From: Bacteroidales bacterium
GTDB taxonomy: Bacteria > Bacteroidota > Bacteroidia > Bacteroidales > UBA12077
Reading direction: 5' to 3'
NCBI GenBank assembly: GCA_003446015.1
Contig: DMBU01000054.1
Span: forward strand, 1,121-65,120
Length of the DNA: 64,000 nt
The translations under genes were made by a program, and so were the position numbers. Every line of letters begins with the position of its first letter. Within the stretch, counting starts at the first letter, position 1. The notes below the pieces were generated by a model, which was given only the letters and a program-made list of their open reading frames with translations, searched no databases and was not told the DNA's origin. This document shows, in pieces, positions 4,787-45,064 of the stretch.

Positions 4787-4924
4787 TAAAAATCAGGAGT
4801 GTTGTTAAACATGATTGGTTTAGAATCGTTGATATTGCTAAAATACAGGGCTTCAAAACATTCTGTTATTTGAATAACAATAAAAATTGTGAATTGTCCT
4901 ATTTTCTTTAATTTTTTTTTTACA

Positions 4925-4932
4925 TAAGTTTG
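4925..4932 (+). promoter_or_regulatory. candidate -7 promoter element (TAagTTTG) for the second gdh
   Basis: TAnnTTTG match 45 nt upstream of the ATG at 4977. The right arm of the 25-bp inverted repeat (4943-4967) lies in the predicted 5' UTR. Confidence 0.35.
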
Positions 4933-4961
4933 TTAGCATTAAACCATAAATTACAAACTAA

Positions 4962-6317
<1,356 letters not shown>

Positions 6318-6340
6318 TTAATTTATCGATAAATATTTTA

Positions 6341-6369
6341 AGGGAGACAAATTTTGTCTCCCTTTTTTG
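6341..6369 (+). terminator. rho-independent terminator
   Basis: AGGGAGACAAA / TGTCTCCCT hairpin followed by TTTTTT. Confidence 0.75.
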
Positions 6370-6494
6370 TTTTAGGGTAATTCCCTTTTTGTTGATCATA
6401 GATAAGATTAACTGTTTTATGACACATTGAATTAATAACAGAACCATAGTTTTAAGTCAGATTTTTTTTATGTTTGCATCGCTTAATTTTTTTT

Positions 6495-7262
6495 ATGCAA
6501 TTAATAGATACGCATACCCATTTATTCTTACCTGAGTTTGATTCTGATAGGGATCAGGTTATTTTGAATGCACAACAGAATGGAGTAGAGAAAGTGCTTC
6601 TTCCTAATGTTGATGGTTCAACAATAAATGATTTATTAAAACTTGTTGAAAAATATCCTGATTATTGTTACCCGATGATGGGTTTGCATCCAACATCTGT
6701 AACGGAAGATTATAAGGAAGAACTCAAAAAAACAGAAATCTGGCTTGAAAAAAGAAAATTTATTGCTATTGGTGAAATAGGAATAGATTTATATTGGGAT
6801 AAAACATTTAAAAAACAACAAGAAGAGGCTTTTAGATATCAAATTGATTTAGCTAAAAAATACGATTTACCAGTTGTAATTCATGCGCGTGATTCATTTG
6901 ATGAAATATTCACAATAATGGATGAAATAATTGATGATAAATTAAAAGGAGTGTTTCATGCATTTACCGGGGATGAAATTCAAGCTAAACGTATTATTGA
7001 GTGGGGATTTAAAATAGGAATCGGAGGCATAGTTACGTTTAAAAATTCAGGATTGGATAAAGTTGTTCATAATATTGATATAAATCATATCGTTTTAGAA
7101 ACAGATTCACCATATTTGGCCCCTGTTCCGCATCGGGGAAAAAGAAATGAAAGTGCTTATTTACTCAATATTGCACAGAAAATAGCAGAAATAAAAAACA
7201 TATCATTCAAAGAAGTTGCTGAAATTACCACTTATAATGCAAATCAACTTTTTAAGTTGTAA
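6495..7262 (+). CDS. tatD: TatD-family metal-dependent hydrolase
   Basis: IDTHTHL N-terminal motif, then GEIGLD-like GEIGIDLYW, VVIHARD and ETDSPYL. The track ORF starts at a TTG at 6474; the ATG at 6495 (MQLIDTHTHL) is more likely. Confidence 0.85.
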   Translation: MQLIDTHTHLFLPEFDSDRDQVILNAQQNGVEKVLLPNVDGSTINDLLKLVEKYPDYCYPMMGLHPTSVTEDYKEELKKTEIWLEKRKFIAIGEIGIDLYWDKTFKKQQEEAFRYQIDLAKKYDLPVVIHARDSFDEIFTIMDEIIDDKLKGVFHAFTGDEIQAKRIIEWGFKIGIGGIVTFKNSGLDKVVHNIDINHIVLETDSPYLAPVPHRGKRNESAYLLNIAQKIAEIKNISFKEVAEITTYNANQLFKL

Positions 7263-7267
7263 ACAAG

Positions 7268-8305
7268 ATGAAAGAGAATAGATCAAAATCTATATTAATT
7301 ATATATACCGGAGGAACCATTGGGATGATCAAAGATCCTGAAACGGGAGTCTTATCTCCGTTTGATTTTGATCAGATTTTGGTTGAAGTGCCAGAATTAA
7401 AAAGATTTGGGTTTAAGCTTTCTACTACATCTTTTTCACCTTTAATTGATTCTTCAAACCTGAACCCCGAGGTTTGGATTAAACTGGCAGAAATCATTCA
7501 AGAAGAATATAATGCTTATGATGGTTTTGTAATACTGCATGGAACTGATACCATGGCTTATTCTGCGTCTGCTTTAAGTTTTATGCTCGAGAATCTCGAT
7601 AAACCAGTAATTTTTACAGGGTCTCAATTACCTATCGGAACTTTGCGTACTGATGGTAAAGAAAATCTTATTTCTGCAATTGAAATAGCTGCCACCGAAA
7701 AAAATGGACAAGCTCTTGCACCGGAGGTATGTGTTTATTTCGAAAATAAATTAATGAGAGGAAACCGCACAACAAAATATAATTCGGAACATTTTAATGC
7801 CTTTGAATCACCCAATTATCCTAATTTGGCTGAAGCCGGAATAAATATAAAGTTTAATTATGGTGCAATTCATTATTCAACAAACAAAAAAGATTTAAAA
7901 ATACATATCAGGTTGGATACAAATATTGTTATTTTAAAAATCTTTCCTGGAATTAATCAAGAAACAATACATACTATATTAAATTTAAATAATGTTAAAG
8001 CTATTATACTGGAAACATATGGTGCCGGAAATGCCCCTACTGAAAAGTGGTTTTTAGCTGAGATAGAAAGAGTTATTAAACAAGGACGGATAGTTTTAAA
8101 TGTTACTCAGTGTATTGCGGGGAGTGTTGATATGACAAAATACCAAACCGGAAATGAGCTTTTAAAGAGAGGTGTATTAAGCGGTTATGACATAACAACA
8201 GAAGCAGCTGTAACAAAGTTGATGCATATTCTGGGAAGAGAATTAAAGCAGGATGAATCTAAATTATTATTAAATCAATCTATTAGTGGTGAAATAACAA
8301 AATAA
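7268..8305 (+). CDS. ansA: L-asparaginase, type I
   Basis: 345-aa ORF with the IYTGGTIGM catalytic threonine motif, HGTDTMAY and GAGN. Confidence 0.85.
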   Translation: MKENRSKSILIIYTGGTIGMIKDPETGVLSPFDFDQILVEVPELKRFGFKLSTTSFSPLIDSSNLNPEVWIKLAEIIQEEYNAYDGFVILHGTDTMAYSASALSFMLENLDKPVIFTGSQLPIGTLRTDGKENLISAIEIAATEKNGQALAPEVCVYFENKLMRGNRTTKYNSEHFNAFESPNYPNLAEAGINIKFNYGAIHYSTNKKDLKIHIRLDTNIVILKIFPGINQETIHTILNLNNVKAIILETYGAGNAPTEKWFLAEIERVIKQGRIVLNVTQCIAGSVDMTKYQTGNELLKRGVLSGYDITTEAAVTKLMHILGRELKQDESKLLLNQSISGEITK

Positions 8306-11546: not shown

Positions 11547-11570
11547 AAGTGACCCAGGGAGGACTCGAAC
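11547..11570. repeat. island attachment-site repeat (left), a duplicated tRNA-Arg 3' fragment
   Basis: AAGTGACCCAGGGAGGACTCGAAC is identical to 45041-45064. Confidence 0.85.
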
Positions 11571-11733: not shown

Positions 11734-12987
11734 ATGGCAACACTCACATATTTTATAAGAACCACAAAGAAACCAACAGAAAAGGTAAGTATTAGAGTTA
11801 GATTAAGGCATAATGAAACTTACTTTTATGCAAAAACTTCATATGCGGTTGCTCCCCAAAACTGGGATAAGAAGAAGCAACGAATAAAGCAGGGGAAAGA
11901 GCATTCAACGAGAGATACAATTAATACTAAACTGACTTCATTGGAAACCTATATAATGGATCAGTGGAACCTACGCATTGATAAAAATCTAATAGACAGC
12001 GAATGGTTGCAGGATTCTATCAATTTATTTTTTAAGAAAACCGTAAAAGAGGAAAAGGAAATATCATTACAAAGATTTATTAATAAATACTTCGATAATA
12101 TTGATTTGTATGTAAGTGATAAAACAGGAAAAAAGTTAAATCCTAGCACTATTCGAAAACTGAAAGCGAGTCAAGAAGTTCTAAAGGACTTTATTGAAAA
12201 GAGATTCGAAAGTATTTTGCTTACAGAAGTTAATTATGCTTTTTATGAAAGTTTTGTTCAATATCTAACTGATGAAAAAAAGTATGCAGTTAATACGGTG
12301 GGTAAACACATTGGAAGTTTAAAGGCAGTATTAAGCTTTGCAAAACGAAAGGGGTATAATATAGATACTGAGCGATTTAAAAGACTGAGTGAAGAAAGCG
12401 ATAATATTTATTTAAATGAAGAAGAGTTACAAAAAATATATAGTCTCGATTTATCTGAAAACAAACGTTTAGAAAAGGTGCGTGATCTTTTTATTGTTGG
12501 TGCCTGGACCGGACTTAGATTTAGTGATCTAACCATGGTAAATAAGGATAGTATACAAAATGATATGATTGTTGTTGAGCAAAGTAAAACATCGCAAAAA
12601 GTATTTGTTCCATTACACTGGATGACCAAAGCAATATTTGAAAAATATGATTACGAAATTCCCGTTCAGATAACCAACCAAAAGTTTAATGAGTTTATAA
12701 AAGAGGTCTGTGATAAAGCAAAAATTAATGATGTTTTTACAAAAGGAATAACAATTGCAGGAAAACGAAAAATTGAACAATTTAAAAAGCATCAAAAGGT
12801 TTCATCGCATACTGCAAGACGTTCATTTGCAACAAATTTATATAACTCAGATTTTCCAACTATCTCAATAATGGCAATAACAGGTCATAAAAGTGAAAGA
12901 GCTTTCTTATCATATATAAAAGTTACACCAGAAGAGCATGCAAAAAAACTTCAACGACATTGGGGGAATATTAATAAAACACTCTAA
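11734..12987 (+). CDS. tyrosine-type site-specific recombinase / integrase
   Basis: 417-aa ORF. The C-terminal catalytic region has WTGLRFSDL (Arg), HTARRSFAT (H-x-x-R) and ITGHKSERAFLSYIK (His and the Tyr nucleophile). The N-terminal arm-binding-like region is typical of Bacteroidota integrases. Confidence 0.85.
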   Translation: MATLTYFIRTTKKPTEKVSIRVRLRHNETYFYAKTSYAVAPQNWDKKKQRIKQGKEHSTRDTINTKLTSLETYIMDQWNLRIDKNLIDSEWLQDSINLFFKKTVKEEKEISLQRFINKYFDNIDLYVSDKTGKKLNPSTIRKLKASQEVLKDFIEKRFESILLTEVNYAFYESFVQYLTDEKKYAVNTVGKHIGSLKAVLSFAKRKGYNIDTERFKRLSEESDNIYLNEEELQKIYSLDLSENKRLEKVRDLFIVGAWTGLRFSDLTMVNKDSIQNDMIVVEQSKTSQKVFVPLHWMTKAIFEKYDYEIPVQITNQKFNEFIKEVCDKAKINDVFTKGITIAGKRKIEQFKKHQKVSSHTARRSFATNLYNSDFPTISIMAITGHKSERAFLSYIKVTPEEHAKKLQRHWGNINKTL

Positions 12988-13015: not shown

Positions 13016-13765
13016 ATGATTTCACACATTAAAAGCACTGTATTCTCAATTTTAATTAAAAAAAATAGCTCTAACATTAAACATCTTGGAACTGGATTTT
13101 TAATTGGCAAAGAAGGATTATTTTTTACTGTTGGTCATACTTTTAGAAAGATTAAAAAAGAAATTGAAAATAATGGCCTTAATAATATATTTGTTGCATT
13201 TCCTAAAAAACAGGCCGAATTAATTGAAATTAATAGATTGCAGTATAAATCAATTGAAATATACAAGCAAAAGGGGCCAACTTATATAGATATAGCCGTA
13301 GGTTCGATTCCTATTAAGAATGATGATTATTTGGTTTTCAAGAGAAAAAGGCCGTCTAATAAAGAAAAATTAACTGCTTATGGATATAAAAACATGAAGG
13401 ACAATGGTCTGCATGAATTATCTGAAAATACTGCAAACTTAGAAAAAGTAGAATTAAAACCAGAAAAGGTTAATAAAACACATGACATAGCTCTAATTTC
13501 AGATGTGAGAAGAGATTATGAATTATCAAGGGAAAAGGTAAACAGAAGTAGGTTTTTTAATAATTGTATTACTCTTGACAAAAGATTGTTTAGCGGGGGT
13601 AGTGGCTGTCCTATTGTTGATTCAGATGGATATGTTAGGGGTGTATTAATAGGTAGTTCTCAAATTGTCAAATCTTCAGATATGATTTTATCAAAGTATT
13701 GTACTAAATATATTAGATATCACACTAGTATCATGTTTGATATGTATCAAGACATTAATTCTTAA
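13016..13765 (+). CDS. trypsin-like (S1/chymotrypsin-fold) serine protease, no signal peptide
   Basis: 249-aa ORF with the triad in canonical order: TVGHTF (His), YIDIAV (Asp), GGSGCPIV (GxSGxP Ser). Confidence 0.6.
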   Translation: MISHIKSTVFSILIKKNSSNIKHLGTGFLIGKEGLFFTVGHTFRKIKKEIENNGLNNIFVAFPKKQAELIEINRLQYKSIEIYKQKGPTYIDIAVGSIPIKNDDYLVFKRKRPSNKEKLTAYGYKNMKDNGLHELSENTANLEKVELKPEKVNKTHDIALISDVRRDYELSREKVNRSRFFNNCITLDKRLFSGGSGCPIVDSDGYVRGVLIGSSQIVKSSDMILSKYCTKYIRYHTSIMFDMYQDINS

Positions 13766-13940
13766 TGTATAATGTTTAATTGAGGACCACTTTATTCTCA
13801 AAAAAATAGTTAAAAACATTGATCTAAATTGCAAAATAAAGTCTAACTATTTAGTAAGACATTTTATTAAAACTTTATAGAATTGTTTTATTTTTTTAGT
13901 AATTTCATCAAACATTTGATATTAAGAGATAGTATTTGTA

Positions 13941-15050
13941 ATGACCAAACTAAAAAGTGAGCTTATTCAAGAGTTAAGGGATTTAAATAAAAATCCTGAT
14001 ACTGAAATAGTTCCTTTTATAGGTGCGGGATCATCAAAACTTTTAGGATTACCGGATTGGAAAGAACTCATAGAGCAATACCATAAATATGTTGGTTGTA
14101 CTATTAGTTTAGAATCTATAAAGAAGGATCTTAAAGAGGATCTTTCTAAAGTTGCAGATTTAATATTTGAGAATTCTGGTAAAGATTTTGATTTATATTA
14201 CGAATTTATGGGAGGGATTACACCCAAAAATACTGGATATACCGCATTACATGCTGTATTAGTTAAGAATTTTCAAAAAATTATTACAACCAATTATGAT
14301 CAAGCTTTTGAGAATGCCTTAAGTGATGATAATATAAATGACTATAAATTATTAGTTTATCCAAATAATTTAATGTCAATTGATTTTCAAGGAAGGGTTA
14401 TTGCATATATACATGGACATATTAAAAGTGGAATTTATGTTTTTCGAAATGAAGAATATGAGCAAGCCTATCTACATGATACTAAAATAAAAAGTTTTCT
14501 AACAGAAATTATTTCAAAGAAAGTTTTAGTGTTTATTGGTTTTAGTTTTAGTGATAAGATGTTTAGAAATACAGTAAAACAAATTATCGCAGAAACAAAC
14601 GCAGTAAGAGAAAAAGAAGAGCAAGTTTTTGGGAAAAAAAGCAAGACAAATTTTGAACAAAAATTATATGTATTATTTCCAAGCGAAAATTTGAAAACAA
14701 AAGTTTTTAAACATGATTTAAGTAAATTAGGGATCAATTATGATGAAATAGAGGATCATATAAGCTTAAATGGGGAAGATGATTCTTTAGAAATGAAAGT
14801 TCTAGAATTAGAAGAAAGTGCCAATTTACTGAAAATTGAATTAGGAGAAAACTATAATAAGCTAAATGAATTGTACTTAAGAACTGAAAAAAATAGAGAT
14901 ATGTTAAAATATTTTAGCAATCTTAAAATTGAAGTAGTTGAATATGATGAAAACAATACCATTGAAATAGAAGAAATAATTAGACTAATAACCAAAGAAG
15001 AAATCAAACATTCAGATGATTTATCAGAAGCTCGCAATATAAAGAATTAA
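13941..15050 (+). CDS. SIR2-like (SIR2_2-type) domain protein with a coiled-coil tail
   Basis: 369-aa ORF with VPFIGAGSSKLLGLPDWKELI, ITTNYDQAFE, YIHGHI and VFIGFSFSD. These blocks characterise the defence-associated SIR2_2 family. Confidence 0.7.
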   Translation: MTKLKSELIQELRDLNKNPDTEIVPFIGAGSSKLLGLPDWKELIEQYHKYVGCTISLESIKKDLKEDLSKVADLIFENSGKDFDLYYEFMGGITPKNTGYTALHAVLVKNFQKIITTNYDQAFENALSDDNINDYKLLVYPNNLMSIDFQGRVIAYIHGHIKSGIYVFRNEEYEQAYLHDTKIKSFLTEIISKKVLVFIGFSFSDKMFRNTVKQIIAETNAVREKEEQVFGKKSKTNFEQKLYVLFPSENLKTKVFKHDLSKLGINYDEIEDHISLNGEDDSLEMKVLELEESANLLKIELGENYNKLNELYLRTEKNRDMLKYFSNLKIEVVEYDENNTIEIEEIIRLITKEEIKHSDDLSEARNIKN

Positions 15051-15054
15051 GGTT

Positions 15055-17823
15055 ATGTTAATAGAAGAGTTAAGAATAATACAAGATTATATTAATAATC
15101 CTAAGGACGTTAAGCTACCTGAAGATAGATTCTTTTTAGATAATGATATAAAAGAAGAGTTTTTTTGGTTAAAAGCGAGCATTAAAAATCAGAAATTAAT
15201 CATAAGTGATTTCATTAAAGATCATCCATGTTATATATCAAACAAATTAACAAGGATTCTAAGAACGGGTGAATACACGAAAATTGAGTATTATTTATTA
15301 GTGTTCCTGATAAATTTAACTGATAATTTGGTTAAGATGGAGAGTTCACTTTCTATTGTTAAGGATATAATTGATGAATACATTGTTAACGGAAATACTT
15401 CTAGCTGTAAACTTAATTCTCAAGTGCAATTTTTTATATCTAAAATGATAATTAGGTTACCAATAAAAGATTTATCTGACACATATATTGATTTTATAGC
15501 TGAAAAGGCACTTCATAATGATTCTGCACTATCATATCAAATAACAGATGTCTTTTTCCCAAAACTTCTTGAAAGCGGAAATAAAGATTTGGTTAAAAAG
15601 GTATTAATCAAATGGATATTTTCTTATGACATTAAGAATTCATCATTTGAGTTTTCACAATCTCCAATTTTATTACCTAGGTTTTATAGTTACAGTTTAG
15701 AAAATATTATATCTGATAGTAAAAAAATAAGAAGCTTAATAGAAATTATAGGAGCAAATGAATTATTTGAATTATCACTGGGTTTAATAAAAGAAGTTAT
15801 TAATAAAGCTCCAATCAAGTTTCATTCTATAAATATCCCAACAATTGAAAAAAGCGAACAAACCGTTAATGAAAATGATTTTTCATATTTATTAGTAAGT
15901 TTTATTAGAGAACAAATAAATTTAAGCAAATTAAGTAAGAAGTTAGTTACAAGTCTTTTAATATCAGAAGTTTCAATTATTAAGAGATTCGGGTATTATA
16001 TGATTGGATTGTATTATGTTGATTATAAGAATCTTTTTTGGAATTTGAAGGTGTACAATCCTTTAAATGAAGTAGAATCTAAATATGAAATATTCAGTCT
16101 ATTGAAAGAGAATTCTGAAGCAATAAAAAAAGAGGAATTAAAAATCTTATTTAATTGGATTGATAATATAGAGATTAAAGACTATGATGGTGACGCAGAT
16201 GAGATCAAAAAATTGAAAGTAATAAGAGGAAAGGAGTATATAGCAGCACTTGAAAAGATTAATGAAGAATTTATAAAGAGTGTAAAAGATAAAAAGAAAG
16301 AATTAGATAAGATTTATCCATATGAAAGAGAACATCCAGGCTATAATTCCTATTTTACTACTAGGGTAGGGTATGATTACCCAGACAGTGATGAAGAATT
16401 TAAACTTTATAGTAATAACCCACAGAATTTGGTAAAAAAGATTGAGGAAGATGATGATAAATGGGATTGGCTGGAAAAAGAGGGACAACAAGATAGATTA
16501 AGAGAACTTTTTAAAGAAAATCCTAATTATATCAAGGATACCAATAGTTTAGCAAAATTAGATTTTAATTATTTGTCTAATATCATTTATGGATTGGATT
16601 TGGCATTGAAGGAAGGAAAGATTATTGACTGGAATAAAATTATCAAGCTTATTAATACTGTAATAAATTCAGGGAAGTTTAATGAATCTACTCATGATAG
16701 AAATCAATTTGTTGGTTATGTAGGGTGGTTAATTAGGACTGCAACTGAAAGTGACGAAAAGCCATTACTTAAAGAACATTTGAGTTCATTAAAAGATATT
16801 TGTTTGAAGTTGTTAAAATTAAATACTCATTCAAAAAGGTTAAATAATGATCCTTTTTTTGATGTTTTGAATAGTTCAGAAGGTAAAGTTTTTGATGCAA
16901 CATTAAATGTTTTATTACAAAATGCTAGGTTATATAAGAAAAATGATGGTGATAAATGGATTAAGGAAATAAAGGATTATTACACATACGTCTTAAATAA
17001 TAATAAAATTTCTGAAGCATTTCTTTGGAGCGTTGCTGGACACTTACCTCAGTTTGGTTTTCTTCATATGGATTGGTTAATTGAGAATATAGATAAATTA
17101 TTTCCAAAGGGTAATTTGAAATATTGGAAATTATCCATGAGGTTTTATCACCGAATGTCTTCTACTGTTTATAAATCAATATTTGATTTACTTAATTCAA
17201 ATGGGCATTATGATTTAGCTTTAAAGATTTTTATTAACAAGGAAGAAGGAACAAGGGACATAATTTCACATATTATTGTAAGTTATATTGCAGGTTGGAA
17301 AGAACAAGAAATAGATAATTCCAATGGTTTGTTGAATAGAATTATTAAAAAACAAGAATGGACTCAAATTGAATCTGCAATAAATTATTTTATCACTAAT
17401 AAAAATATTGAAACAAATAGATTGATTGAATTTTGGCGTTTAATGGTAGGTAATGTTGAAAAGGAAAAAGATAAAATAGGAAGAGAATTACTAAGACTTT
17501 CACATAGAATCTACTCTATAGATGATGAAATATATGAACTAATGTCTCAAACATTAGATTTATTAGATGATAAAAGAGAATTGCATGAACTATTAAGGAA
17601 TCTTCTGAAATCTATTAAAGGGGATCCGTTGAAAAGAGCAAAGTTAATTATGAAAGCGACATCGAAAGACCTAGATCAGGGGTATTATATCGATGATGAT
17701 ATAAAAAAATTATTAGAAGAATTAGAAAACGAAGATGTTTTATTTAGATTGAACTTTATAAATGATATGGTTTCAAAAAGATTATTTGGTCTTTTTGATA
17801 TTTATTATTCAGAAGAACTATAA
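15055..17823 (+). CDS. large helical-repeat protein, no enzymatic motif seen; candidate sensor partner of the SIR2 protein
   Basis: 922-aa ORF starting 4 nt after the SIR2 stop. Leu/Ile/Lys-rich and helix-like throughout, with no P-loop or nuclease motif visible. Confidence 0.5.
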   Translation: MLIEELRIIQDYINNPKDVKLPEDRFFLDNDIKEEFFWLKASIKNQKLIISDFIKDHPCYISNKLTRILRTGEYTKIEYYLLVFLINLTDNLVKMESSLSIVKDIIDEYIVNGNTSSCKLNSQVQFFISKMIIRLPIKDLSDTYIDFIAEKALHNDSALSYQITDVFFPKLLESGNKDLVKKVLIKWIFSYDIKNSSFEFSQSPILLPRFYSYSLENIISDSKKIRSLIEIIGANELFELSLGLIKEVINKAPIKFHSINIPTIEKSEQTVNENDFSYLLVSFIREQINLSKLSKKLVTSLLISEVSIIKRFGYYMIGLYYVDYKNLFWNLKVYNPLNEVESKYEIFSLLKENSEAIKKEELKILFNWIDNIEIKDYDGDADEIKKLKVIRGKEYIAALEKINEEFIKSVKDKKKELDKIYPYEREHPGYNSYFTTRVGYDYPDSDEEFKLYSNNPQNLVKKIEEDDDKWDWLEKEGQQDRLRELFKENPNYIKDTNSLAKLDFNYLSNIIYGLDLALKEGKIIDWNKIIKLINTVINSGKFNESTHDRNQFVGYVGWLIRTATESDEKPLLKEHLSSLKDICLKLLKLNTHSKRLNNDPFFDVLNSSEGKVFDATLNVLLQNARLYKKNDGDKWIKEIKDYYTYVLNNNKISEAFLWSVAGHLPQFGFLHMDWLIENIDKLFPKGNLKYWKLSMRFYHRMSSTVYKSIFDLLNSNGHYDLALKIFINKEEGTRDIISHIIVSYIAGWKEQEIDNSNGLLNRIIKKQEWTQIESAINYFITNKNIETNRLIEFWRLMVGNVEKEKDKIGRELLRLSHRIYSIDDEIYELMSQTLDLLDDKRELHELLRNLLKSIKGDPLKRAKLIMKATSKDLDQGYYIDDDIKKLLEELENEDVLFRLNFINDMVSKRLFGLFDIYYSEEL

Positions 17824-17846
17824 AATTAAATTAGATATAGATTTAA

Positions 17847-18173
17847 ATGTGGTCAAAAGAAGAACTCCAAGTTTATATAAGCTACTGTAAACTGAATAAC
17901 TTAAAATATGAATGTGTCTGGATAAATATGAATGATGATGAAAGATTAAATTTACTTGGAAAACTACATCAAAAAATGCTTCAAATTGATAAATCTGTTA
18001 AAGTGTATCTTGATTTTGAATATGTTGATTCTTTAAGGTATTCTTTAATCGATTTTGTTAAAGACGAAATGCCAAATAAGTTACTTACCTGGATTCCGGA
18101 TAACTTTAGCACAAAACAAGAAATGGTAAAATATGTAGATAATTACGTTAAAAAAGAGCTCTACTGGAATTAA
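17847..18173 (+). CDS. small hypothetical protein, third gene of the SIR2 operon
   Basis: 108-aa ORF 23 nt downstream of the 922-aa gene on the same strand. Confidence 0.45.
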   Translation: MWSKEELQVYISYCKLNNLKYECVWINMNDDERLNLLGKLHQKMLQIDKSVKVYLDFEYVDSLRYSLIDFVKDEMPNKLLTWIPDNFSTKQEMVKYVDNYVKKELYWN

Positions 18174-18182
18174 ATATAAAAA

Positions 18183-18325
18183 GGTCATTTGCAACAAACT
18201 TATATAACTCAGATTTTTAACAATTTCAATAATGGCAATAACAGGTCATAAAAGTGAGAGAGCTTTCTTATCATATATTTAAGTCACACCAGAAGAGCAT
18301 GCTAAAAAACCTCAAAGGCACTAGG
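18183..18325 (+). pseudogene. decayed 3' fragment of a second tyrosine integrase gene
   Basis: About 143 nt align with integrase positions 12822-12964, roughly 85-90% identical by eye. The fragment has a 1-nt deletion and in-frame stops (GATTTTTAA, TATATTTAA). Confidence 0.8.
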
Positions 18326-18439
18326 AAAAATTTGCTAAATAAAGTCTGACTATTTGGTTAGTATTTGGTAATTTTATTATAATCATATTCCAATTAGATG
18401 GAATAATTATCCAACTATTGAATTGTTAGGCAACATTGT

Positions 18440-19474
18440 ATGAAGAAACTTAAAACATATCACTCATTTAATGATAAGGGAGAATGTTACTTCCCTTCAG
18501 TTCAAGAAATAAATGATTTCGAAAAAAATGGATTTCATCCTATTTTACTTTTGGATAGTTGTGTTTGCTTAGATTTAATAAAATTTGTGAATTATAAGAA
18601 AAAATCTCAGTTGGATAAGGCAAAACTAAAAAATTATCTAGAATATATTAAAAAACACAAGATTGAAACAATTTCGATGTTTGGACTACTTGAGTTATGT
18701 CATGATCCAAAAACAATGGAATTTGATATTAACAAATTTTGGGAATTTAATAATAAGATTGACTTTATTGAAAAAATCCCAATGAATTATGTAAACAGTT
18801 ATAGGTTTGACTTTGATAGGGATTATATTGTTACAGATTTGAACGAATTTGAGACAAATTCAATTATAGCTTTTAGACCATTATTGTTGACAACATATTG
18901 TTGTTTACTAAAAATTAGAGAAATAAGCTTTAATGGTTTAGAGAAAAGTAAAGCTATAAAGAATATTGAAACGTTTAGAGATTGGTTAATTAATGAATTA
19001 GACATATCAATGGCAATTGAATATCATCTTGCGATGAATATATTCGGCGGTATAAGCGAACTTAGAAAAATGATATGTATTGATACAAAAAAGCATGATG
19101 TAAAGAAAATACTTTGGGGAACATCTTGGGATATCTTTCATTCTAGAATTAATGGAAACAATGCTGAATTTTCTGGATATTTTGGAGAAAAAATATATTC
19201 GACCTTTATAACCAATGATTCTAATTTGTTTAAATTAATTTCAAAAATTTCACTAGAAGCTATATTTTTAAATTCTGAAAACAACAGTTCAACAAGTATG
19301 ATAGTTGCATCAAATGAATTGCCACATTTTGAACCAGCATTTATAGATGAAAGTAATTCAAAAATGAAAAATATATTTTCAAACAGATTACTAATAAAGA
19401 AGCAATTTAATGAATCCAAGATACTAGAAATGATTGAGAAGTTAGAGTATAGTAACAACGTTGCCGAACGATAA
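18440..19474 (+). CDS. hypothetical protein, possibly a PIN-like nuclease fold
   Basis: 344-aa ORF. Acidic positions are spaced as in PIN domains: ILLLDSCVCL, GLLELC, TSWDIFH, FITNDSNLF (the T-x-D motif). Sits 39 nt upstream of the NACHT-like gene. Confidence 0.45.
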   Translation: MKKLKTYHSFNDKGECYFPSVQEINDFEKNGFHPILLLDSCVCLDLIKFVNYKKKSQLDKAKLKNYLEYIKKHKIETISMFGLLELCHDPKTMEFDINKFWEFNNKIDFIEKIPMNYVNSYRFDFDRDYIVTDLNEFETNSIIAFRPLLLTTYCCLLKIREISFNGLEKSKAIKNIETFRDWLINELDISMAIEYHLAMNIFGGISELRKMICIDTKKHDVKKILWGTSWDIFHSRINGNNAEFSGYFGEKIYSTFITNDSNLFKLISKISLEAIFLNSENNSSTSMIVASNELPHFEPAFIDESNSKMKNIFSNRLLIKKQFNESKILEMIEKLEYSNNVAER

Positions 19475-19513: not shown

Positions 19514-22500
19514 ATGAACTTAAATTATTTATATACACCGATTCAGACTAGCGTTGACCCACCAATTGACACTAAAGAACAAGTACTGCCTTTAGAAAAA
19601 TTATCTTGGGAAGACTTTGAAAAACTGTGTTTAGCTGCTGTACAAGTTGATTTTTCAATAAACGAGTGTGAAATCTATGGTATAAAGGGGCAAGCACAAG
19701 AAGGAATAGATATTTTTGCAAGGCAATCAAATGGAAAATATAGTTCATACCAATGCAAAAGATATCAAGAATTTGAATTAAATGACATAAATAATGCTGT
19801 TAAATACTTTAAAAGCAAAGAATTCTTTGATAAAAGTGATAAACTATTTTTGTGCACTTCCTGCGAATGGAACAAAACACAAGTTCAAGATAGATTTGAA
19901 GAATTAAAAACTGAACTTCAAAAAGATAACGTAACATTAGTAAAATGGGATAAAATTCAACTGTCTAGACTTCTTAAAAACAAACCACAAATAGTGTTTG
20001 ACTTTTTTGGCTTAGAATGGGTGAAAAAATTTAATGGTGAACCCGCTTTACAACAAATTTCAAAATCAAAAAAGTACGATGCTAAAAAAATAATTGAGTT
20101 TAGGAGTGAGTTGTACGAATTTTACTCTACAATTTTTAATATTCAAGATCCTGGTATTCCTATAAAAGAACTAAAAAGTCCATATACTTTACAAGATAGG
20201 TTTATTATTCCAGACATTCTTTCAAACCTAAAAGACGAAGGTTTTGAAAACAATAATGAAACTTCTTCTTCAATCATATATCAAGATCAGTATTATAATG
20301 ACGATAATAGTTATGGATTTGTTGAAAATGGGTTAAGGAAAAGAAATTTCAAAAATCAAAATGATGTAGAAGAAAGCAACATTGATATTCGGATTAATGC
20401 TGATGATGCGCTTATAAGCAATGATAAAAATATAATTATTGGAGACCCCGGAGCTGGTAAAAGTAGTTTACTTAGATATATAACACTTGACATTTTAAGT
20501 CCGAAACCTCAGTTAGAAAACATTTCTCAAAAACATGGCAAAACCTTACCAGTATGGTTGCCTTTTGCTTTTATAACAAAACACCTTAGTAATAATGATT
20601 CTTTAAGTATTTCCGAAATACTAAATCTTTGGTTTAATGGGTTCGGAAAAGGCTATTTGTTCGAAATTGCAAAAGAAGCTTTAAATGATGAACGACTATT
20701 TTTAGTTATTGACGGAATTGATGAATGGAGCAGCCTTTCATCTGCACAACAAGCGATTGCACGTATCGAAACAATAAGAAAATTATATGATTGCAAAGTT
20801 CTTTATTCTAGCAGACCATATGGTTTTAGAATATTAAAAGACTTCTTCACAAACCTAAATGTCCTAAATCTAGCAGGATTTTCTAAAGCTCAACAAAGAA
20901 ACTTTGTTAAGAAATGGTATGATAAATGGGCTTCATTACAAGGCGATAGTCAAGATGAAGATTTCTCAAAAACACAGACTAAAAATTTTATAAAAGAATT
21001 AGAGCAATCAGGGGATTTAAAAAAATTAGCTGAAATACCACTGCTGTTAAGTATTTTGATAATACAAAAAATGCAAGATTCGGTATTGCCTAAAAATAAG
21101 CTTGAGGCTCTTAAAGAAATAACACAATATTTAATAAAAAAACACCCTGTAAAACGTATAACTGATGCAGGAATTGTACAAGAAAAAATAAATGAAGTAG
21201 ATTTTAAAGATATTTTCTGCGAGCTAGCCATTTACATTCAAAAAGAAAGTAATGATGGTGTAATTTTTAAAAGTGATGCACATAAAATAATAAAGCAATA
21301 TCTAGTTTCTTATGCGGGTTATGATGAAGCAAGAGCTAAAGTTCGTAGCCAAGAAATAATTGAGCTTGGTGCAAATAATTATGGAATTATAATTGAAAAA
21401 TCAAATGATGAAATTTCTTTTGGTCATAAGCAATTTCAGGAATTTTTAGCAGCTCAATATTTATATGAGTCTGATGATGACACAATAAGCCAGTTTGTAA
21501 ATCAGTATGGAGCTAATCCTACTTTTCACCAAGTAATTATGAGCTTGTTTGGTTTAATGCAATTAAAACAGGTAAAAAAGTATAAAAAACATTTTAAAGC
21601 ATTAAAAGAAGCAGTTTGCGAAAAATTTCAAGAGGATTACCTTAACCTAATTTCATATGAGATTTCAATTAATTTAGACAATGCACCGACTGATGTTATG
21701 AATGAAGCTTTTGATTCAATCATTCATGAATTCGAATATGAAACTGACCCGTCATACAAAGAAGCTTTACTTAAACTAATTATTAGTGCTCTGCAAACGG
21801 GAAGATTAAAAGAAAAGGTTGAATGTTTCCTTGTACAATTTTTCCCATACGAGTATAAGTACAGAGATTATCGAGTTAATGCTTTAGGATATTCTAATCA
21901 GTTAAATGCAATTCAAGTAGAATTTCTGAAGAAAGCGTTAATCAATGGGACAATCAATACAAGATATGATGCTTCTTATGCATTCAAAAAACACATAAAA
22001 AACAAAGAAGTTTTTAGTTTTATAAAAGATATAATTTATAACTGCTCAAATCCAGATATTTTAGCTTTTGCAATTAATAGTATTTCAACTAACGACATTG
22101 CAGAGCAAGAAAGAGATGATCTTATAAAGTCTGTTGTAGTTAATGTGCCAATCGTACAACTTTACTTATTTAAATATAAAGTTTTCACAAAAAAACATAC
22201 TCAAGATGATTTAGAACTAATATTACCAATTGTAAACCAATTGCCTTATCAGCTAAAACAAGAATCGATTGAATTATTAATTAGTGGATTTAATCAAAAC
22301 AGTAACCTTAAAGAAATACTAGTTAAATCTATTGATAGAAAGGGATATTACAACGAAAAAGAAACTACAGTTGATGGTGAAATTGCCTGGAAGGTACTTT
22401 TTCATTCCTTTAATAAAGACAAGGATGTAATTAATCTTATTAAATTACAATTTGAGAATGAAGAATTTCCATTTATTTCTGTTGATAAACATGAAATATT

Positions 22501-24397
22501 TCAAAACTTGCGTTATTACTTTAAAGATACTAAAGAATTGGTTCCTTCTGTTGAAAAGTGGTTGGACAATCGATTAGAAAAGTACAGTTTTGTTAACCCC
22601 GAAGTGGCATTTGTATGTCTGTTTATTCAGACTGAAAAAGCAAAAGATATTCTTCTTAAAGATTTGCCAAAGACAAATTTTTCTCACTGGAATGTAATGG
22701 CTCTATTGGAAGGTTGGTCTGATGATATGGACATTAAAGAAAAACTCAAAGAGTATTTCAGAACGATTGAAAAATCAAAAACATCTGCAGCCGCACATTT
22801 TATATCAAAAGTTTTTGATAGTAGCGAAAAAGAGGAGGCTATAAAAATTTTAGAAGAAATCCTTTTTGATAAGAAAATAACCTTTAGAGAAAGGGCTATT
22901 TCTGCACTCATTGAAATAGATAAAGATTATTTTGAGAACAATATTTTAAAAACACTTATTAATGAACTTGAATCCTTCCCTAAAGACATTTTTGGTCAAT
23001 ATTATTCTGCACTTGACATAATTGTAAAGAGTTTTCGTTCAAACACAATTGTGCAATCTTATGTATTAGCACGGATAGAAAGTGATAATAATTTATACAG
23101 CTTAGCTGTTCAGTATTTTCCTGAGTTAATAAAGGAGGAGGAAAAGCTACTTAGAAAATCAACTCCATTATCAAAAGATTTAAGGACATTAATTATTGAG
23201 TCTTTTACGAATTTATCAGTTCTGCCAAGTGGCATTGAATATGTTTTAAGCGATTTCGAAAAGGAAACAGTAGAAGAAATAATGGGTGATATGGCGGCAT
23301 GTTTATTCAACCATATCAAAGAAACTAAAGTAGATAAAATTACAGAAATTAGTAAGCCAATGGTTTTTGCAATGGGCTTTGACTATGAGGTAAAAAGAAG
23401 TATTGCGTTTACAGGTTATTTAATTTCTAAAAAATTAGACGAATATTTTTCTGTAGAAAATGCTGAAAACCCCAAAGATAGTTCTACACGTCTGGATATT
23501 TTTAACGAATACGGTTATAGGAAATCTACGAGCGGATTAATGATAAAGTCTATAGTAGATAATTTTGACTCTCTTATCTCTTTTGCGGGCAGAGATTTTA
23601 ATAAAATTGTTGGGCATCTAAAGCATAGCAAAGATATTGAGGATATTTGGGGATTCTTTGCAAGACATTCTGTGAAATCATCTCCCACATATAGCCATAT
23701 AATTGAATTTATATCGAACAATTCCACCACAATTAAAAATAGTTATTTAATTAGTTTTCTTAACAGAACAGCACCTAGAAGTCCTATTTTAAAGGATATT
23801 TTATTACGACATATTAAAAATAATGATAGTAATAGAAGTGGTAATATGATTCTTGCAGGTAGACTATTAGGTACTAATTTTAAAAATGACACCCAAGTTC
23901 ATAAAGAAGTTTGTATGGTTCAGGATGTTTATGATGTTGGAAGAATTATGGCGTTATGCAATGGATGGCAGGAAGAACCAATTCTAAAAAAAATATTTGA
24001 TGACATAGTTAAATATCAAATTCCAGTAGATAACTATGTAGGCTTCAGTCTTAAGTTTTTATTTCGAGACGTAAGTAATTTGATCGAATTCATTAAAGAT
24101 ATATCTAAAAATATTGGTGAATTTAAACGATACCACAAGTTTTTCTTCATCCCAATGATTGAACGCTTGAGGAGAGATAAAGATTTTAGCTTAGCTATTA
24201 AGGAGCTTTTATTATCTAGCAAATCATTAAGCGAAAAAATTTCTTATTACAACTTACTAGCAGAAGTTAATATGGTGGACGAAGATGTCACTTTATGGAA
24301 AAATAAAATAGCTGATTTCAAAAATGACTTTGGTTATGACATTGTTTCAAACAAAACAGTTAGATTAAAGGACATTTTATACGATTATTATTACTAA
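19514..24397 (+). CDS. STAND/NACHT-type NTPase with an N-terminal Mrr-like PD-(D/E)xK nuclease domain and a ~1100-aa C-terminal helical-repeat region (Avs/bNACHT-like)
   Basis: 1627-aa ORF. The N-terminus FEKLCLAAV...QEGIDIFAR...YQCKRY matches the Mrr_cat pattern (D...Q-x-K). Walker A is IIIGDPGAGKSSLLRYI (20441-20464) and Walker B is LFLVIDGIDEW. The C-terminal region is long and helix-rich. Confidence 0.7.
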   Translation: MNLNYLYTPIQTSVDPPIDTKEQVLPLEKLSWEDFEKLCLAAVQVDFSINECEIYGIKGQAQEGIDIFARQSNGKYSSYQCKRYQEFELNDINNAVKYFKSKEFFDKSDKLFLCTSCEWNKTQVQDRFEELKTELQKDNVTLVKWDKIQLSRLLKNKPQIVFDFFGLEWVKKFNGEPALQQISKSKKYDAKKIIEFRSELYEFYSTIFNIQDPGIPIKELKSPYTLQDRFIIPDILSNLKDEGFENNNETSSSIIYQDQYYNDDNSYGFVENGLRKRNFKNQNDVEESNIDIRINADDALISNDKNIIIGDPGAGKSSLLRYITLDILSPKPQLENISQKHGKTLPVWLPFAFITKHLSNNDSLSISEILNLWFNGFGKGYLFEIAKEALNDERLFLVIDGIDEWSSLSSAQQAIARIETIRKLYDCKVLYSSRPYGFRILKDFFTNLNVLNLAGFSKAQQRNFVKKWYDKWASLQGDSQDEDFSKTQTKNFIKELEQSGDLKKLAEIPLLLSILIIQKMQDSVLPKNKLEALKEITQYLIKKHPVKRITDAGIVQEKINEVDFKDIFCELAIYIQKESNDGVIFKSDAHKIIKQYLVSYAGYDEARAKVRSQEIIELGANNYGIIIEKSNDEISFGHKQFQEFLAAQYLYESDDDTISQFVNQYGANPTFHQVIMSLFGLMQLKQVKKYKKHFKALKEAVCEKFQEDYLNLISYEISINLDNAPTDVMNEAFDSIIHEFEYETDPSYKEALLKLIISALQTGRLKEKVECFLVQFFPYEYKYRDYRVNALGYSNQLNAIQVEFLKKALINGTINTRYDASYAFKKHIKNKEVFSFIKDIIYNCSNPDILAFAINSISTNDIAEQERDDLIKSVVVNVPIVQLYLFKYKVFTKKHTQDDLELILPIVNQLPYQLKQESIELLISGFNQNSNLKEILVKSIDRKGYYNEKETTVDGEIAWKVLFHSFNKDKDVINLIKLQFENEEFPFISVDKHEIFQNLRYYFKDTKELVPSVEKWLDNRLEKYSFVNPEVAFVCLFIQTEKAKDILLKDLPKTNFSHWNVMALLEGWSDDMDIKEKLKEYFRTIEKSKTSAAAHFISKVFDSSEKEEAIKILEEILFDKKITFRERAISALIEIDKDYFENNILKTLINELESFPKDIFGQYYSALDIIVKSFRSNTIVQSYVLARIESDNNLYSLAVQYFPELIKEEEKLLRKSTPLSKDLRTLIIESFTNLSVLPSGIEYVLSDFEKETVEEIMGDMAACLFNHIKETKVDKITEISKPMVFAMGFDYEVKRSIAFTGYLISKKLDEYFSVENAENPKDSSTRLDIFNEYGYRKSTSGLMIKSIVDNFDSLISFAGRDFNKIVGHLKHSKDIEDIWGFFARHSVKSSPTYSHIIEFISNNSTTIKNSYLISFLNRTAPRSPILKDILLRHIKNNDSNRSGNMILAGRLLGTNFKNDTQVHKEVCMVQDVYDVGRIMALCNGWQEEPILKKIFDDIVKYQIPVDNYVGFSLKFLFRDVSNLIEFIKDISKNIGEFKRYHKFFFIPMIERLRRDKDFSLAIKELLLSSKSLSEKISYYNLLAEVNMVDEDVTLWKNKIADFKNDFGYDIVSNKTVRLKDILYDYYY

Positions 24398-27172: not shown

Positions 27173-28044
27173 TTACTTTATCTATAGAATTTATGTTTAC
27201 CATGATTAAATTTGCAGCAACCTATTTGATTGAAATAAATTTGGTAGAAAAGCCAATTAATGAGCAAGTAATAAAATGGATGGATTAAAAAACCTAAAAC
27301 TCTTTTATAAAAAACTTAAAGCTTCAACATTAGTTGGGACTATTGTTGCTTTATAATAGTAACAGTAGCATCTTCTCTCCCTTTAATATTCAATATTAGT
27401 TCTGTTAGGTATTTGTGATATTAAAATTATATAGTAATTTTTAAATTCTAAATCTTTTAAGAAATATTTAGAAAATATCTTTGCTACAGCAAAGTTTCAG
27501 CCAAAAAGAAAAATAGATAACCAAGTAACTTGGCTTCCAAAACATCAAGATGTTTTTATTCGTTATCTGGATAGGGTTACAATTTGCCCTAGATATTTTA
27601 GGAGTTTAAGTAGAATTTGTTTTCTTAAATGAAAAGAAAATAAAAAGAGGAATATCAAAAAATATTTGAAGCTAAAGAAGTTCACTTTTGAGGGATAGAT
27701 AATGGCGTTTAGGAGAAGATATGATTTTTTTTTTGCTTTTTAAATTTTAAATAAGAAAAAAAGCGCAAATAATCCATAAATCAAAGGTATTAATTCTGTA
27801 AAAGACCAAAAAACAGAAATATATTCCAAATAAGAAGATGATTGTCGATTTTTAAAGAATTTTACTAGAAAGTATAAAAAATGATATAATTTTAATATTG
27901 AGAAATTATAAAAACTTGTTATTGACTATTTTCCTTTGAAGTACACTTCATTTCATTTAATCATGTATGTTTAAACTAAAAACATATATGAAAGATTCTT
28001 TTGTCAAAAACGAGTTAAACAAAAAATATTTTAATAATTATAAT

Positions 28045-30138
28045 ATGTACAGAATAAAAAATAATAATTTTAAAATCATTATTCTATGGTTAGTAATTGT
28101 GCTTAGCATTAATGCACAGGGCCAAATACCAGCCAATTACTATGATGGTACGGAAGGGTTAGAAGAAGAAGCTCTTAAAGCTGTACTTAATGATATAATC
28201 AAAGGACATACAGTATATACTTATACAAGTACACTTACTGATACATGGGATATTTTAAAAGAATCGGATGCAGACCCTACTAATTCATCAAATGTAATAT
28301 TAGTTTATTCAGGTAGGTCTGTAAATGGACCACAAGAGTATAATGATGGTGCGGGGTGGACAAGAGAACATGTGTGGCCAAATTCAAGGGGTGATTTTGG
28401 AACTGTTCAAGGACCAGGCACGGACTTACATAATTTAAAACCTTGTGATGTTTCAGTTAACTCAGCAAGAAGTAATAGGTGGTTTGATTATGCGGATGTA
28501 TATTATTATGATGATGGAGTAAATACAGGAAGTAAAACAAGTTATACAGATTTTGTTTGGGAACCAAGAGATGAAGTTAAGGGTGATGTGGCCCGAATAA
28601 TATTTTATATGGCAACAAGATATGAGGGAGAGGATGGAGAGATAGATTTAGAGGTTGTAGATTACTTTCCTGCAGATGATTCTTATGAACCATTAATGGC
28701 AATATTGAAGACTTTAAAGGAATGGAATGAGATGGACCCTGTGGATGATTTTGAACGTAATAGGAATAATGTAATTTATAGTTATCAAAATAATAGAAAT
28801 CCATTCATTGATCATCCTGAATTTGTGGAAAAAATTTGGGGACCAGTAATCAGCGAAAGTCAAGGTCTTTTTATTTCGGAGTATATTGAGGGGGATGGTT
28901 ATGATAAAGCCATTGAAATTTATAATAATTCGGAAAGCACAATAGACCTGTCCAATGTTAAATTACAGAAAGATAATGGAGGAGACCAATCATTTTCTTA
29001 TTCCTTGAGTTTGTCAGGAACAATTAATCCTCACGATGTATTTGTTATATCACATAATAGTGCAAGTGCAGAAATTAGAGCAAAAGCAAATTTAACAACT
29101 ACATCCTTGGTAATGACTTTTAACGGGGACGATCAATTGAGAATACTTTATAGTGGAATTGAAACTGATCATATCGGTGATGTTGGAAACTTTGGTGAAA
29201 ATAGAACATTTGTGAAAGCAGGACATGTTTTAAAAGGAGATACATCATTAGTAAACCCACAATTAAGCCTAAATTGGATTGAATTAGATAATGGAAATCA
29301 CAGTTGTTTGGGATATCATTATACTAACCAAACCTTAACAACTCCACAATTATTTATTTCAGAATATATTGAGGGGAGCTCATATAATAAAGGAATAGAA
29401 ATCTTTAATGCTTCAAGTGAAGTTATTGATTTAAGTAATGTAGCACTCCTAAAACAAACAAATGGTTTGGAGGGCTTCTCTGGTTTTTCATTATCAGGGG
29501 AGTTGAATCCTTACAGTGTATATTGTATTGTGCATCCTAGTGCAACAGCAGCATTATTGGAGAAGGCAGATTTACAAACTGTTGGAGGTGTTATGGATTT
29601 TAACGGAAATGACCCTGTCATGTTGGTTTATAAGGGGGTTGCGATTGATAAAATTGGTAACTCTGGTGGTGCAAATTTTGCTATTGACAAGGGATTGTTT
29701 CGAAATAGTAGTCAGGCTCTTCCTTCAAAAGAATGGAATGTTGCCGAATGGACTAATATTGCAATGGATAATTTTTCGTTCTTTGGTGATCACCAATATG
29801 ATTATCAACCTGCTCCTGACACTTTATATGCTATAGCTTCAGGCGATTGGACAGATCCTTCCATTTGGGCTTTAACTGAGAATGGTGTTAGAGCGAATAT
29901 TGTTCCAGCAGGAAATACAAATGTAGTAATTACTGGATATCAAATAATATTAAGCAGTGACAAAGAATGTGCTAGTGTTACGCTAAGTTCCAAAGCAGAT
30001 ATTATAACTAGTCTACTTGTAGATGGAGGGAACTTAAGTGTTTATGGAAAGGTAATTCTGGAAAAAACTAACTCAGTTGGCAAGGTAGAATTAGAGGTTA
30101 TAGGAAATGGAAGTTTGAGTTGTACCGAAATAGAATAA
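28045..30138 (+). CDS. secreted endonuclease I-family nuclease fused to two lamin-tail-domain (LTD) repeats
   Basis: Signal peptide from M27 (MYRIKNNNFKIIILWLVIVLSINAQG). REHVWPNSRG...DLHNLKP...N..RSN is endonuclease I-like. There are two LFISEYIEG..Y.K.IEI.N LTD-like repeats. Confidence 0.65.
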   Translation: MYRIKNNNFKIIILWLVIVLSINAQGQIPANYYDGTEGLEEEALKAVLNDIIKGHTVYTYTSTLTDTWDILKESDADPTNSSNVILVYSGRSVNGPQEYNDGAGWTREHVWPNSRGDFGTVQGPGTDLHNLKPCDVSVNSARSNRWFDYADVYYYDDGVNTGSKTSYTDFVWEPRDEVKGDVARIIFYMATRYEGEDGEIDLEVVDYFPADDSYEPLMAILKTLKEWNEMDPVDDFERNRNNVIYSYQNNRNPFIDHPEFVEKIWGPVISESQGLFISEYIEGDGYDKAIEIYNNSESTIDLSNVKLQKDNGGDQSFSYSLSLSGTINPHDVFVISHNSASAEIRAKANLTTTSLVMTFNGDDQLRILYSGIETDHIGDVGNFGENRTFVKAGHVLKGDTSLVNPQLSLNWIELDNGNHSCLGYHYTNQTLTTPQLFISEYIEGSSYNKGIEIFNASSEVIDLSNVALLKQTNGLEGFSGFSLSGELNPYSVYCIVHPSATAALLEKADLQTVGGVMDFNGNDPVMLVYKGVAIDKIGNSGGANFAIDKGLFRNSSQALPSKEWNVAEWTNIAMDNFSFFGDHQYDYQPAPDTLYAIASGDWTDPSIWALTENGVRANIVPAGNTNVVITGYQIILSSDKECASVTLSSKADIITSLLVDGGNLSVYGKVILEKTNSVGKVELEVIGNGSLSCTEIE

Positions 30139-30162
30139 AACATAAAACTTAAATTATTATAA

Positions 30163-33855: not shown

Positions 33856-33910
33856 CTTTATATACTTTTTGAAAGGATAACTTATATATTATACAATAGA
33901 TATAACAATT

Positions 33911-40177: not shown

Positions 40178-40180
40178 ACT

Positions 40181-40681
40181 ATGAAAAGATATTTAATTTA
40201 CTTAGGTATAATTATTTTTACAAGCTGTAATAGTGTTGCTCAAACTTTAGTAAAATATGATACGTATTCTAATAATCAATCTATAAAGGTAAAAATGAAG
40301 ATTCCTTCTGAATTTGATTTAAAAAGATATGAAGTAACAGTTGAAAAAGAGAATCAATATTTTTACATGGATTCTTCTATTATATATATATCAAATTTTA
40401 CTAATAACCCCAATTATTCAAATATTAAACAGCTCGGAGATAGTATTGCTAATTATAGATTTCAAGATGAAGAATTAACTAAGAGTATAAATGAACAAAT
40501 GAATAAAGAAGTTGTAAAACCGTTGCCCGATAGTCTGGTTCTTTTTGGTATTGATGAAAATAATCTATTTTGGAAAGATATAAAAATTGGGAAAATTAGT
40601 ATAGGTTACTTAAAAGTCTCAGAAGATAAAAAAGAATTGTTTGACAAGTCATTAAAAACAGTAAAAATTAAGCAACCTTAA
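40181..40681 (+). CDS. putative cognate immunity lipoprotein
   Basis: 166-aa ORF starting 3 nt after the toxin stop. Lipobox-like IIIFTSC. The position is canonical for RHS immunity genes. Confidence 0.55.
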   Translation: MKRYLIYLGIIIFTSCNSVAQTLVKYDTYSNNQSIKVKMKIPSEFDLKRYEVTVEKENQYFYMDSSIIYISNFTNNPNYSNIKQLGDSIANYRFQDEELTKSINEQMNKEVVKPLPDSLVLFGIDENNLFWKDIKIGKISIGYLKVSEDKKELFDKSLKTVKIKQP

Positions 40682-45040: not shown

Positions 45041-45064
45041 AAGTGACCCAGGGAGGACTCGAAC
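45041..45064. repeat. island attachment-site repeat (right), overlapping the tRNA-Arg 3' end
   Basis: Identical to 11547-11570. Positions 45044-45064 are the last 21 nt of the tRNA. Confidence 0.85.

Follow-up and report, generated by a model that had tools for sequence, protein, structure and literature searches.

DSR1 is the defence-associated sirtuin 1, reportedly described by Gao et al. in 2020 and by Garb et al. in 2022, in which a SIR2 NADase region is followed in one polypeptide by a helical sensor. The system depletes NAD+ upon infection, and against phage phi29 this depletion was transient and occurred without collapse of the culture (10.1101/2021.12.14.472415). Avs7 has the same sensor as Dsr1, and for E. 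coli Dsr1 the phage major capsid protein is what triggers this sensor (PMC12803255, PMC13581612). Here we report on a 64,000-nucleotide (nt) stretch of contig DMBU01000054.1 of a Bacteroidales bacterium (the whole stretch is referred to as the window), in which two adjacent genes on the + strand encode a predicted SIR2 NADase effector subunit of 369 amino acids (aa; 13941-15050) and a predicted Dsr1-type alpha-solenoid sensor subunit of 922 aa (15055-17823). Our data suggest that these two genes are quite probably a two-gene version of anti-phage DSR1, with the SIR2 NADase as effector and the solenoid as sensor, and that the protease gene upstream of them (13016-13765) and the 108-aa gene downstream (17847-18173) are not components. 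The four open reading frames (ORFs) had been marked in an earlier reading of the DNA made from its letters (the sequence-only reading), and all four were found at the coordinates given there, on the + strand and separated by gaps of 176, 4 and 23 nt.

The 922-aa protein had been labelled motif-less, which did not hold: it matches the PADLOC Dsr1 model PDLC04166 with an E-value of 9e-105, sensor residues 3-890 aligning to model positions 291-1193 of 1227, and it is the counterpart of residues ~291-1193 of fused DSR1, i.e. of the sensor part. Fused DSR1 relatives align to the window sensor starting at their residue ~294-300 and give full-length matches to PDLC04166 (846-1359 bits). The window sensor likewise matches the product of a gene on a Bacillus cereus-group plasmid, annotated as "SIR2 family protein" (1324 aa), which is a member of that PADLOC family. 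Searching for homologues of the 922-aa protein by word index returned 4 matches only, and it was an exhaustive HMMER search of 1.84 billion representative proteins that revealed the family, with 514 homologues of which 154 scored below 1e-30. Since the 2.7-kb ORF is uninterrupted in DNA of 26% G+C and has 514 detectable homologues, it is far beyond what chance would produce. The AlphaFold2 model of the protein (predicted local distance difference test, pLDDT, 90.7) consists almost throughout of helical repeats forming an alpha-solenoid, and a Foldseek comparison of this model with the PDB gave nothing closer than generic HEAT/ARM solenoids.

For the 369-aa protein the SIR2_2-type motifs noted previously were recovered at GAGSS 28-32, TTNYD 116-120 and HGH 158-160, together with a Pfam SIR2_2 match at E=1.5e-19. 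Residues N118, D120 and H158, which are predicted to be catalytic, are invariant in 8 orthologues, as are W40, T116, T117 and G159 in the alignment of SIR2 subunits. Among the PADLOC models the protein matches ThsA1 (6.6e-20), LmuA (2.2e-19) and Dsr1 PDLC04167 (6.6e-10, model positions 19-233), and the NCBIfam Dsr1 model matches it at 2.6e-8 (positions 20-247). A hidden Markov model (HMM) made from the N-termini of fused DSR1 proteins also matches the window SIR2, E=1.2e-17. The protein is thus the counterpart of the N-terminal ~290 aa of fused DSR1, with in addition a clade-specific insertion of ~85 aa (residues ~235-320).

At the fission junction (15048-15057, + strand) direct reading of the sequence gives the SIR2 stop codon TAA, a 4-nt spacer GGTT and the sensor ATG in the +1 frame. 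When contigs were scanned for relatives of the pair, a single-protein query found nothing and a 9-sequence alignment used as seed worked. Altogether, 7 independent relatives were recovered, with sensors 23-38% identical to that of the window: a Fluviicola genome, Leeuwenhoekiella parthenopeia, four metagenome-assembled genomes and a more distant lineage (L002/L003). All 7 have SIR2 as an ORF of its own that stops where the sensor begins, with an ATGA overlap in 4, TAATG in 2 and a 7-nt overlap in 1. Among the junctions of split pairs both frame offsets are present, and one conserved recoding signal is therefore not favoured. For the SIR2 partner in L002 the HMM of fused-DSR1 N-termini gives a match at 5e-114 that spans positions 6-291 of 293, which places the cut exactly at the domain boundary.

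Another clade of the sensor family served as seed for a metagenome scan, which gave 80 loci, of which 74 were assessable and 6 too short to judge. A separate SIR2 ORF abuts or overlaps the sensor start in 41 of the 74, SIR2 is fused to the sensor in 20, and in 13 the sensor has an unannotated domain at its N-terminus; wherever a stand-alone sensor has enough upstream DNA, SIR2 lies directly upstream of it. Homologues of the 922-aa protein co-occur with SIR2 genes in the 7 relatives as well as in the 41 loci of the second clade. When 38 complete split pairs were compared with one another, the identity between SIR2 proteins was correlated with that between sensors (Pearson r=0.83, Mantel p~0.001); on this measure, the two genes co-diverge. 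An architecture census of the 138 full-length proteins within the top 150 HMMER matches to the sensor counted ~78 stand-alone sensors of 850-999 aa, 31 with an N-terminal SIR2 (the canonical DSR1 form, ~1200-1260 aa), 28 with the unannotated N-terminal domain and 1 (P0114) in which a TIR domain (TIR_2) replaces SIR2. Stand-alone, SIR2-fused and other-domain-fused sensors are intermixed even inside tight sensor clusters, suggesting repeated fission, fusion and effector exchange, as far as rough neighbour-joining and clustering can tell. Judging from its distribution, the split between SIR2 and sensor is real and old.

The homology of both proteins to DSR1, the cut at the domain boundary, the conservation of the split, the tight coupling of the genes, the conserved catalytic residues and the co-divergence together argue for a two-gene DSR1. 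The suggestion that the SIR2 and 922-aa proteins are the separately encoded effector and sensor of a DSR-like system is accordingly upheld, and the relation to DSR1 is one of direct homology and not of analogy alone. What had been put forward as a candidate novel system is, at the HMM level, assigned by PADLOC to the named Dsr1, and its split form is widespread; the pair represents a variant form of an established system and opens no new class of immunity. Split forms have also been seen by others, as indicated by the mention of "split proteins" in the methods of a 2026 Nature paper on the Dsr1/Avs7 sensor (PMC13581612), and in the literature searched we found no description of split DSR1 forms.

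Several points weigh against the identification as DSR1. The literature searched yielded no experiments on any split SIR2/sensor pair. With NCBIfam NF041818, the equivalog model of E. coli-type Dsr1 with a cutoff of 1400 bits, the window SIR2 scores 32.1 bits and the sensor gives no match; the fused relatives are likewise low, 42-52 bits against the same cutoff. These low scores mean that E. coli Dsr1 is only a distant relative and that the trigger may differ. Moreover, the window SIR2 scores higher against the ThsA and LmuA models of PADLOC than against the Dsr1 models, and it carries the ~85-aa insertion, which is common to its clade. Finally, scans for terminators and for promoters, of the sigma-70 type and with the Bacteroidetes motif TAnnTTTG, performed no better than on shuffled sequence and gave no operon boundaries.

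The pair probably acts as DSR1 does: the 369-aa SIR2 and the 922-aa sensor would associate non-covalently into a putative complex that keeps SIR2 inactive. Once the solenoid sensor has bound a phage protein, this inhibition would be released, SIR2 would then hydrolyse NAD+, and the depletion of NAD+ would block phage replication. By analogy with E. coli Dsr1 the trigger may be the major capsid protein; which protein acts as trigger is the least secure part of the scheme, since the branch to which the window pair belongs is only distantly related to E. coli Dsr1.

Compared with DSR1, the window pair has the same order, SIR2 then sensor, with homologous SIR2_2 NADase region and ~900-aa helical sensor, and its combined length of 1291 aa falls within the 1209-1324 aa of the fused relatives examined. 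It differs in consisting of two polypeptides from two coupled genes, where DSR1 is a single one, in the ~85-aa insertion in SIR2 and in its distance from the E. coli-type Dsr1 of NF041818. The sensor of Avs7 is homologous to that of Dsr1 and is bilobed and helical (PMC13581612), and the swapping of effectors (SIR2, TIR or the unannotated domain) on closely related sensors fits the picture of a shared sensor; however, Avs7 has a STAND NTPase, a domain found in neither the 922-aa protein nor its SIR2 partner, and the window sensor is likened to that of Avs7 through Dsr1 only. With respect to membership among the Avs/STAND NTPases, no NTPase domain is present in the 922-aa protein, and the NACHT protein encoded at 19514-24397 comes from a different gene and bears an Mrr nuclease domain itself.

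DSR2 similarly joins a SIR2 NADase to a large alpha-solenoid sensor, which in DSR2 binds a phage structural protein, but its sensor is of another family and DSR2 is a single polypeptide; the window pair has no PADLOC Dsr2 match at E<=1, and neither SIR2 nor sensor has any other Pfam match above gathering score. The two-gene systems SPARSA (SIR2-APAZ with short pAgo) and SIR2-HerA share with the window a SIR2 NADase subunit controlled by a separately encoded sensor or partner; no Argonaute or HerA ATPase domains were found in the neighbourhood, and the partner in the window is neither. Thoeris ThsA and Lamassu LmuA are the best-scoring PADLOC models for the window SIR2 domain, as given above. 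The ThsA1 match is, however, limited to the SIR2 part (positions 20-264 of 478) with no SLOG/STALD, no TIR gene that could correspond to ThsB lies between positions 11 and 24 kb in the window, and no SMC or AAA matches that could correspond to LmuB were obtained among the neighbours. As the partner domains that these systems require are absent, the pair is, on its domain content, not DSR2, Thoeris, Lamassu, SIR2-HerA or an Avs protein.

The unannotated N-terminal domain that stands in place of SIR2 on some Dsr1-type sensors is ~170-310 aa long, has the motifs REIDGGLRD and AHRHGAW and often CxxC, and gave no match in a Pfam scan; it is probably an uncharacterised effector. Its carriers include P0042, P0045 and P0051 and sensors in L004 (8001-10739), L040, L048, L050 and L074. 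The L004 sensor gene lies 42 nt after a gene for a 986-aa Eco57I-like methyltransferase/endonuclease (4998-7958), and downstream of it are duplicated ORFs of ~102 aa and a PIN-like gene.

The gene at 13016-13765 (+ strand) encodes the trypsin-fold serine protease of 249 aa that the sequence-only reading had recognised by its H/D/S triad, rightly so: Trypsin_2 matches at E=1.4e-6, above the gathering score, and H41, D92 and S196 are invariant in 12 homologues of 39-53% identity. The protease domain of PADLOC RT-Protease_XI also matches it (1.6e-9). A public protein that is 99% identical to the product (P0005) is only 175 aa long, 70% of the ORF; the homologues span 97-100% of the 249-aa ORF including the catalytic His41, and hence the longer call is correct.

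Members of the protease family occur in 7 different genomic contexts, viz. after the integrase (window), after a gene for a 765-aa protein in a region of Bacteroides DNA resembling a conjugative transposon, before the gene of an 8xMP membrane protein, beside an FRG / PDC-S15 gene, twice with small unannotated neighbours only, and after a SIR2-like gene. The last context (L007, also L008) comprises a divergent gene for a SIR2-like protein of 403 aa (5777-6988 in L007; PADLOC Aga_SIR2 1.3e-13, Pfam SIR2_2 1.4e-3, motifs GAGFS, TLNHD and HGS) that ends 13 nt before a protease homologue of 40% identity (7001-7846); L007/L008 may represent an independent pair of SIR2 and trypsin-fold protease.

This arrangement, together with the position of the window protease 176 nt before the SIR2 gene, could mean that protease and SIR2 NADases are linked in function, the protease serving for instance as activator or accessory, so that the window would hold a three-gene unit. 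We regard such a unit as unlikely. SIR2 is a neighbour in only 2 of the 7 contexts and in none of the other 5, the two SIR2 neighbours come from different lineages and stand in opposite gene order, and no homologue of the protease was found in any of the 87 other loci carrying the sensor family, split or fused. SIR2 genes are also common in defence islands, so that adjacency can be due to chance, and the two SIR2 neighbours remain a weak hint of a protease-SIR2 link. As judged by its contexts, the window protease is an independently mobile gene and not a component of the DSR1 pair.

A role outside immunity, with the pair acting as a housekeeping or regulatory NAD-dependent enzyme on a helical scaffold, would be in keeping with the resemblance of the window SIR2 also to non-DSR SIR2_2 proteins, and yet appears very improbable. 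The pair resides in a tRNA-integrated island beside an Mrr-NACHT protein, its relatives adjoin restriction-modification and PLD genes, and fused members of the family are PADLOC Dsr1. The family is furthermore patchy, and SIR2, TIR and unannotated domains are swapped even among close sensors, as in immune sensors.

Equally hard to sustain is the proposal that protease, SIR2, 922-aa and 108-aa proteins make up one four-gene defence system of new architecture. All four genes are co-oriented and closely spaced, and direct repeats of the integrase 3' end bracket them, and they may thus have arrived or been kept together. Against this, the notion that the pair comes with two extra genes failed when the other sensor loci were compared: as for the protease, homologues of the 108-aa protein are found in 0 of the 87, the downstream 344-aa ORF and the integrase are likewise absent from them, and the homologues of the two supposed extra genes occur in other contexts, those of the 108-aa protein behind integrases beside unrelated cargo and those of the protease in the 7 settings listed above. 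The most widespread neighbour family is present in just 8 of 88 sensor loci, i.e. there is no conserved third gene. The four-gene system was therefore rejected.

The 108-aa ORF (17847-18173, + strand) belongs to a real, integrase-linked backbone family with homologues at 54-67% identity; the AlphaFold2 model of the protein is poor (pLDDT 60.5). The homologues lie directly after integrase genes of the same type as in the window, with a 2-nt gap in L017/L018; in L019/L020 they follow remnants of integrase-gene 3' ends, several per locus, and the cargo beside them varies (restriction-modification genes, a reverse transcriptase, a caspase-like protease). In the window a decayed integrase-gene 3'-end remnant (18178-18339, + strand; tblastn: integrase residues 362-409, 92% identity) follows the 108-aa ORF and is ~88% identical to segment 12816-12978 of the integrase gene. 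These two segments constitute the direct repeats D1/D2 that bracket the four genes (84-90% identity, 1-nt indel). Integrase 3'-end remnants are also present at 4844-5011 and 11227-11373 in L019 and at 2813-2980 and 9196-9342 in L020, each with a member of the 108-114-aa family beside it, and the cargo that separates the remnants differs. It seems as if cargo modules had been added one after another where integrase and small gene meet.

A 33-nt element, AAATTGCAAAATAAAGTCTAACTATTTAGTAAG, is present at 13826-13858, upstream of SIR2, and again at 18329-18361, right after the integrase remnant and upstream of the 344-aa ORF; the two copies are 85% identical, and none was found in the 20 loci searched for it. 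The element could be a promoter/operator or a recombination scar. Its recurrence after the remnant, given that the first copy lies between protease and SIR2, suggests a separate insertion of the protease and speaks against the four genes as one system. The simplest reading of these comparisons is that the 108-aa gene is integrase backbone and that the slot between integrase and 108-aa gene collects cargo, which would include the DSR1 pair and the protease.

The weakest alternative, a DSR1 inactivated by a frameshift or nonsense mutation or broken by an assembly error, is scarcely credible and was excluded: the two ORFs do lie in different frames 4 nt apart and the source is a metagenome-assembled genome, but both ORFs are intact with catalytic and structural residues conserved, the split recurs in the 7 relatives, with sensor identities of 23-38%, and in the 41 other loci, the downstream ORFs have proper start codons that overlap the preceding stops, in both frame offsets, and stand-alone sensors number ~78 among the 138 full-length family representatives.

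The upstream neighbour of the protease gene encodes a tyrosine integrase of 417 aa (11734-12987, + strand; Arm-DNA-bind_5, Phage_int_SAM_5 and Phage_integrase domains). The island lies between two exact copies of a 24-bp direct repeat, AAGTGACCCAGGGAGGACTCGAAC: the left att copy lies at 11547-11570 (+ strand) and the right copy, 45041-45064, forms the 3' end of tRNA-Arg(TCG), which is located at 45043-45116 on the minus strand. The ~33.5-kb island is integrated at this tRNA-Arg gene with the integrase at its left, far end, and the G+C content of the region is 25-27%, below that of the flanks. The sequence-only reading had placed the SIR2 and 922-aa genes in a cargo slot directly after an island integrase, and both the integrase and the island limits agree with that placement.

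Further into the island, the 344-aa ORF (18440-19474) has no family match and is followed 39 nt later by the gene at 19514-24397, the 1627-aa product of which has Mrr-type nuclease and NACHT domains, a long C-terminal region and a weak NCBIfam EruA match (6.6e-7). This is probably another defence gene of the same island, of STAND type and separate from the pair. The far half (27967-40681) encodes a 723-aa protein with Endonuclease_1 and lamin-tail domains, a 1230-aa protein without match and a 2088-aa protein with CARDB, DUF6443 and Peptidase_M91, followed by a 166-aa ORF. The last two resemble a polymorphic toxin and its immunity gene.

Fission of DSR1 might not be neutral, in that a SIR2 freed from its sensor would change how the system fires and the frequent switching between forms would mark a plug-and-play sensor platform. 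On the comparisons made here we consider this doubtful, if somewhat less so than a tie between protease and SIR2. Were it true, binding of the trigger might release SIR2 or hand it over for oligomerisation, and one sensor might serve exchangeable effectors in trans; these could include the adjacent protease, given L007/L008, where the protease family abuts a SIR2-like gene.

In the clades sampled the two-gene form is no rarer than the fused one (41 loci as compared with 20, and ~78 of 138 representatives stand-alone). DSR1 is modelled as a single gene, and pipelines that expect one long protein may therefore miss such pairs or annotate just one of the halves. With the natural split, a tool is also at hand for studying how SIR2 is controlled by a Dsr1/Avs7-type sensor, as its parts can be expressed, mutated and swapped separately.

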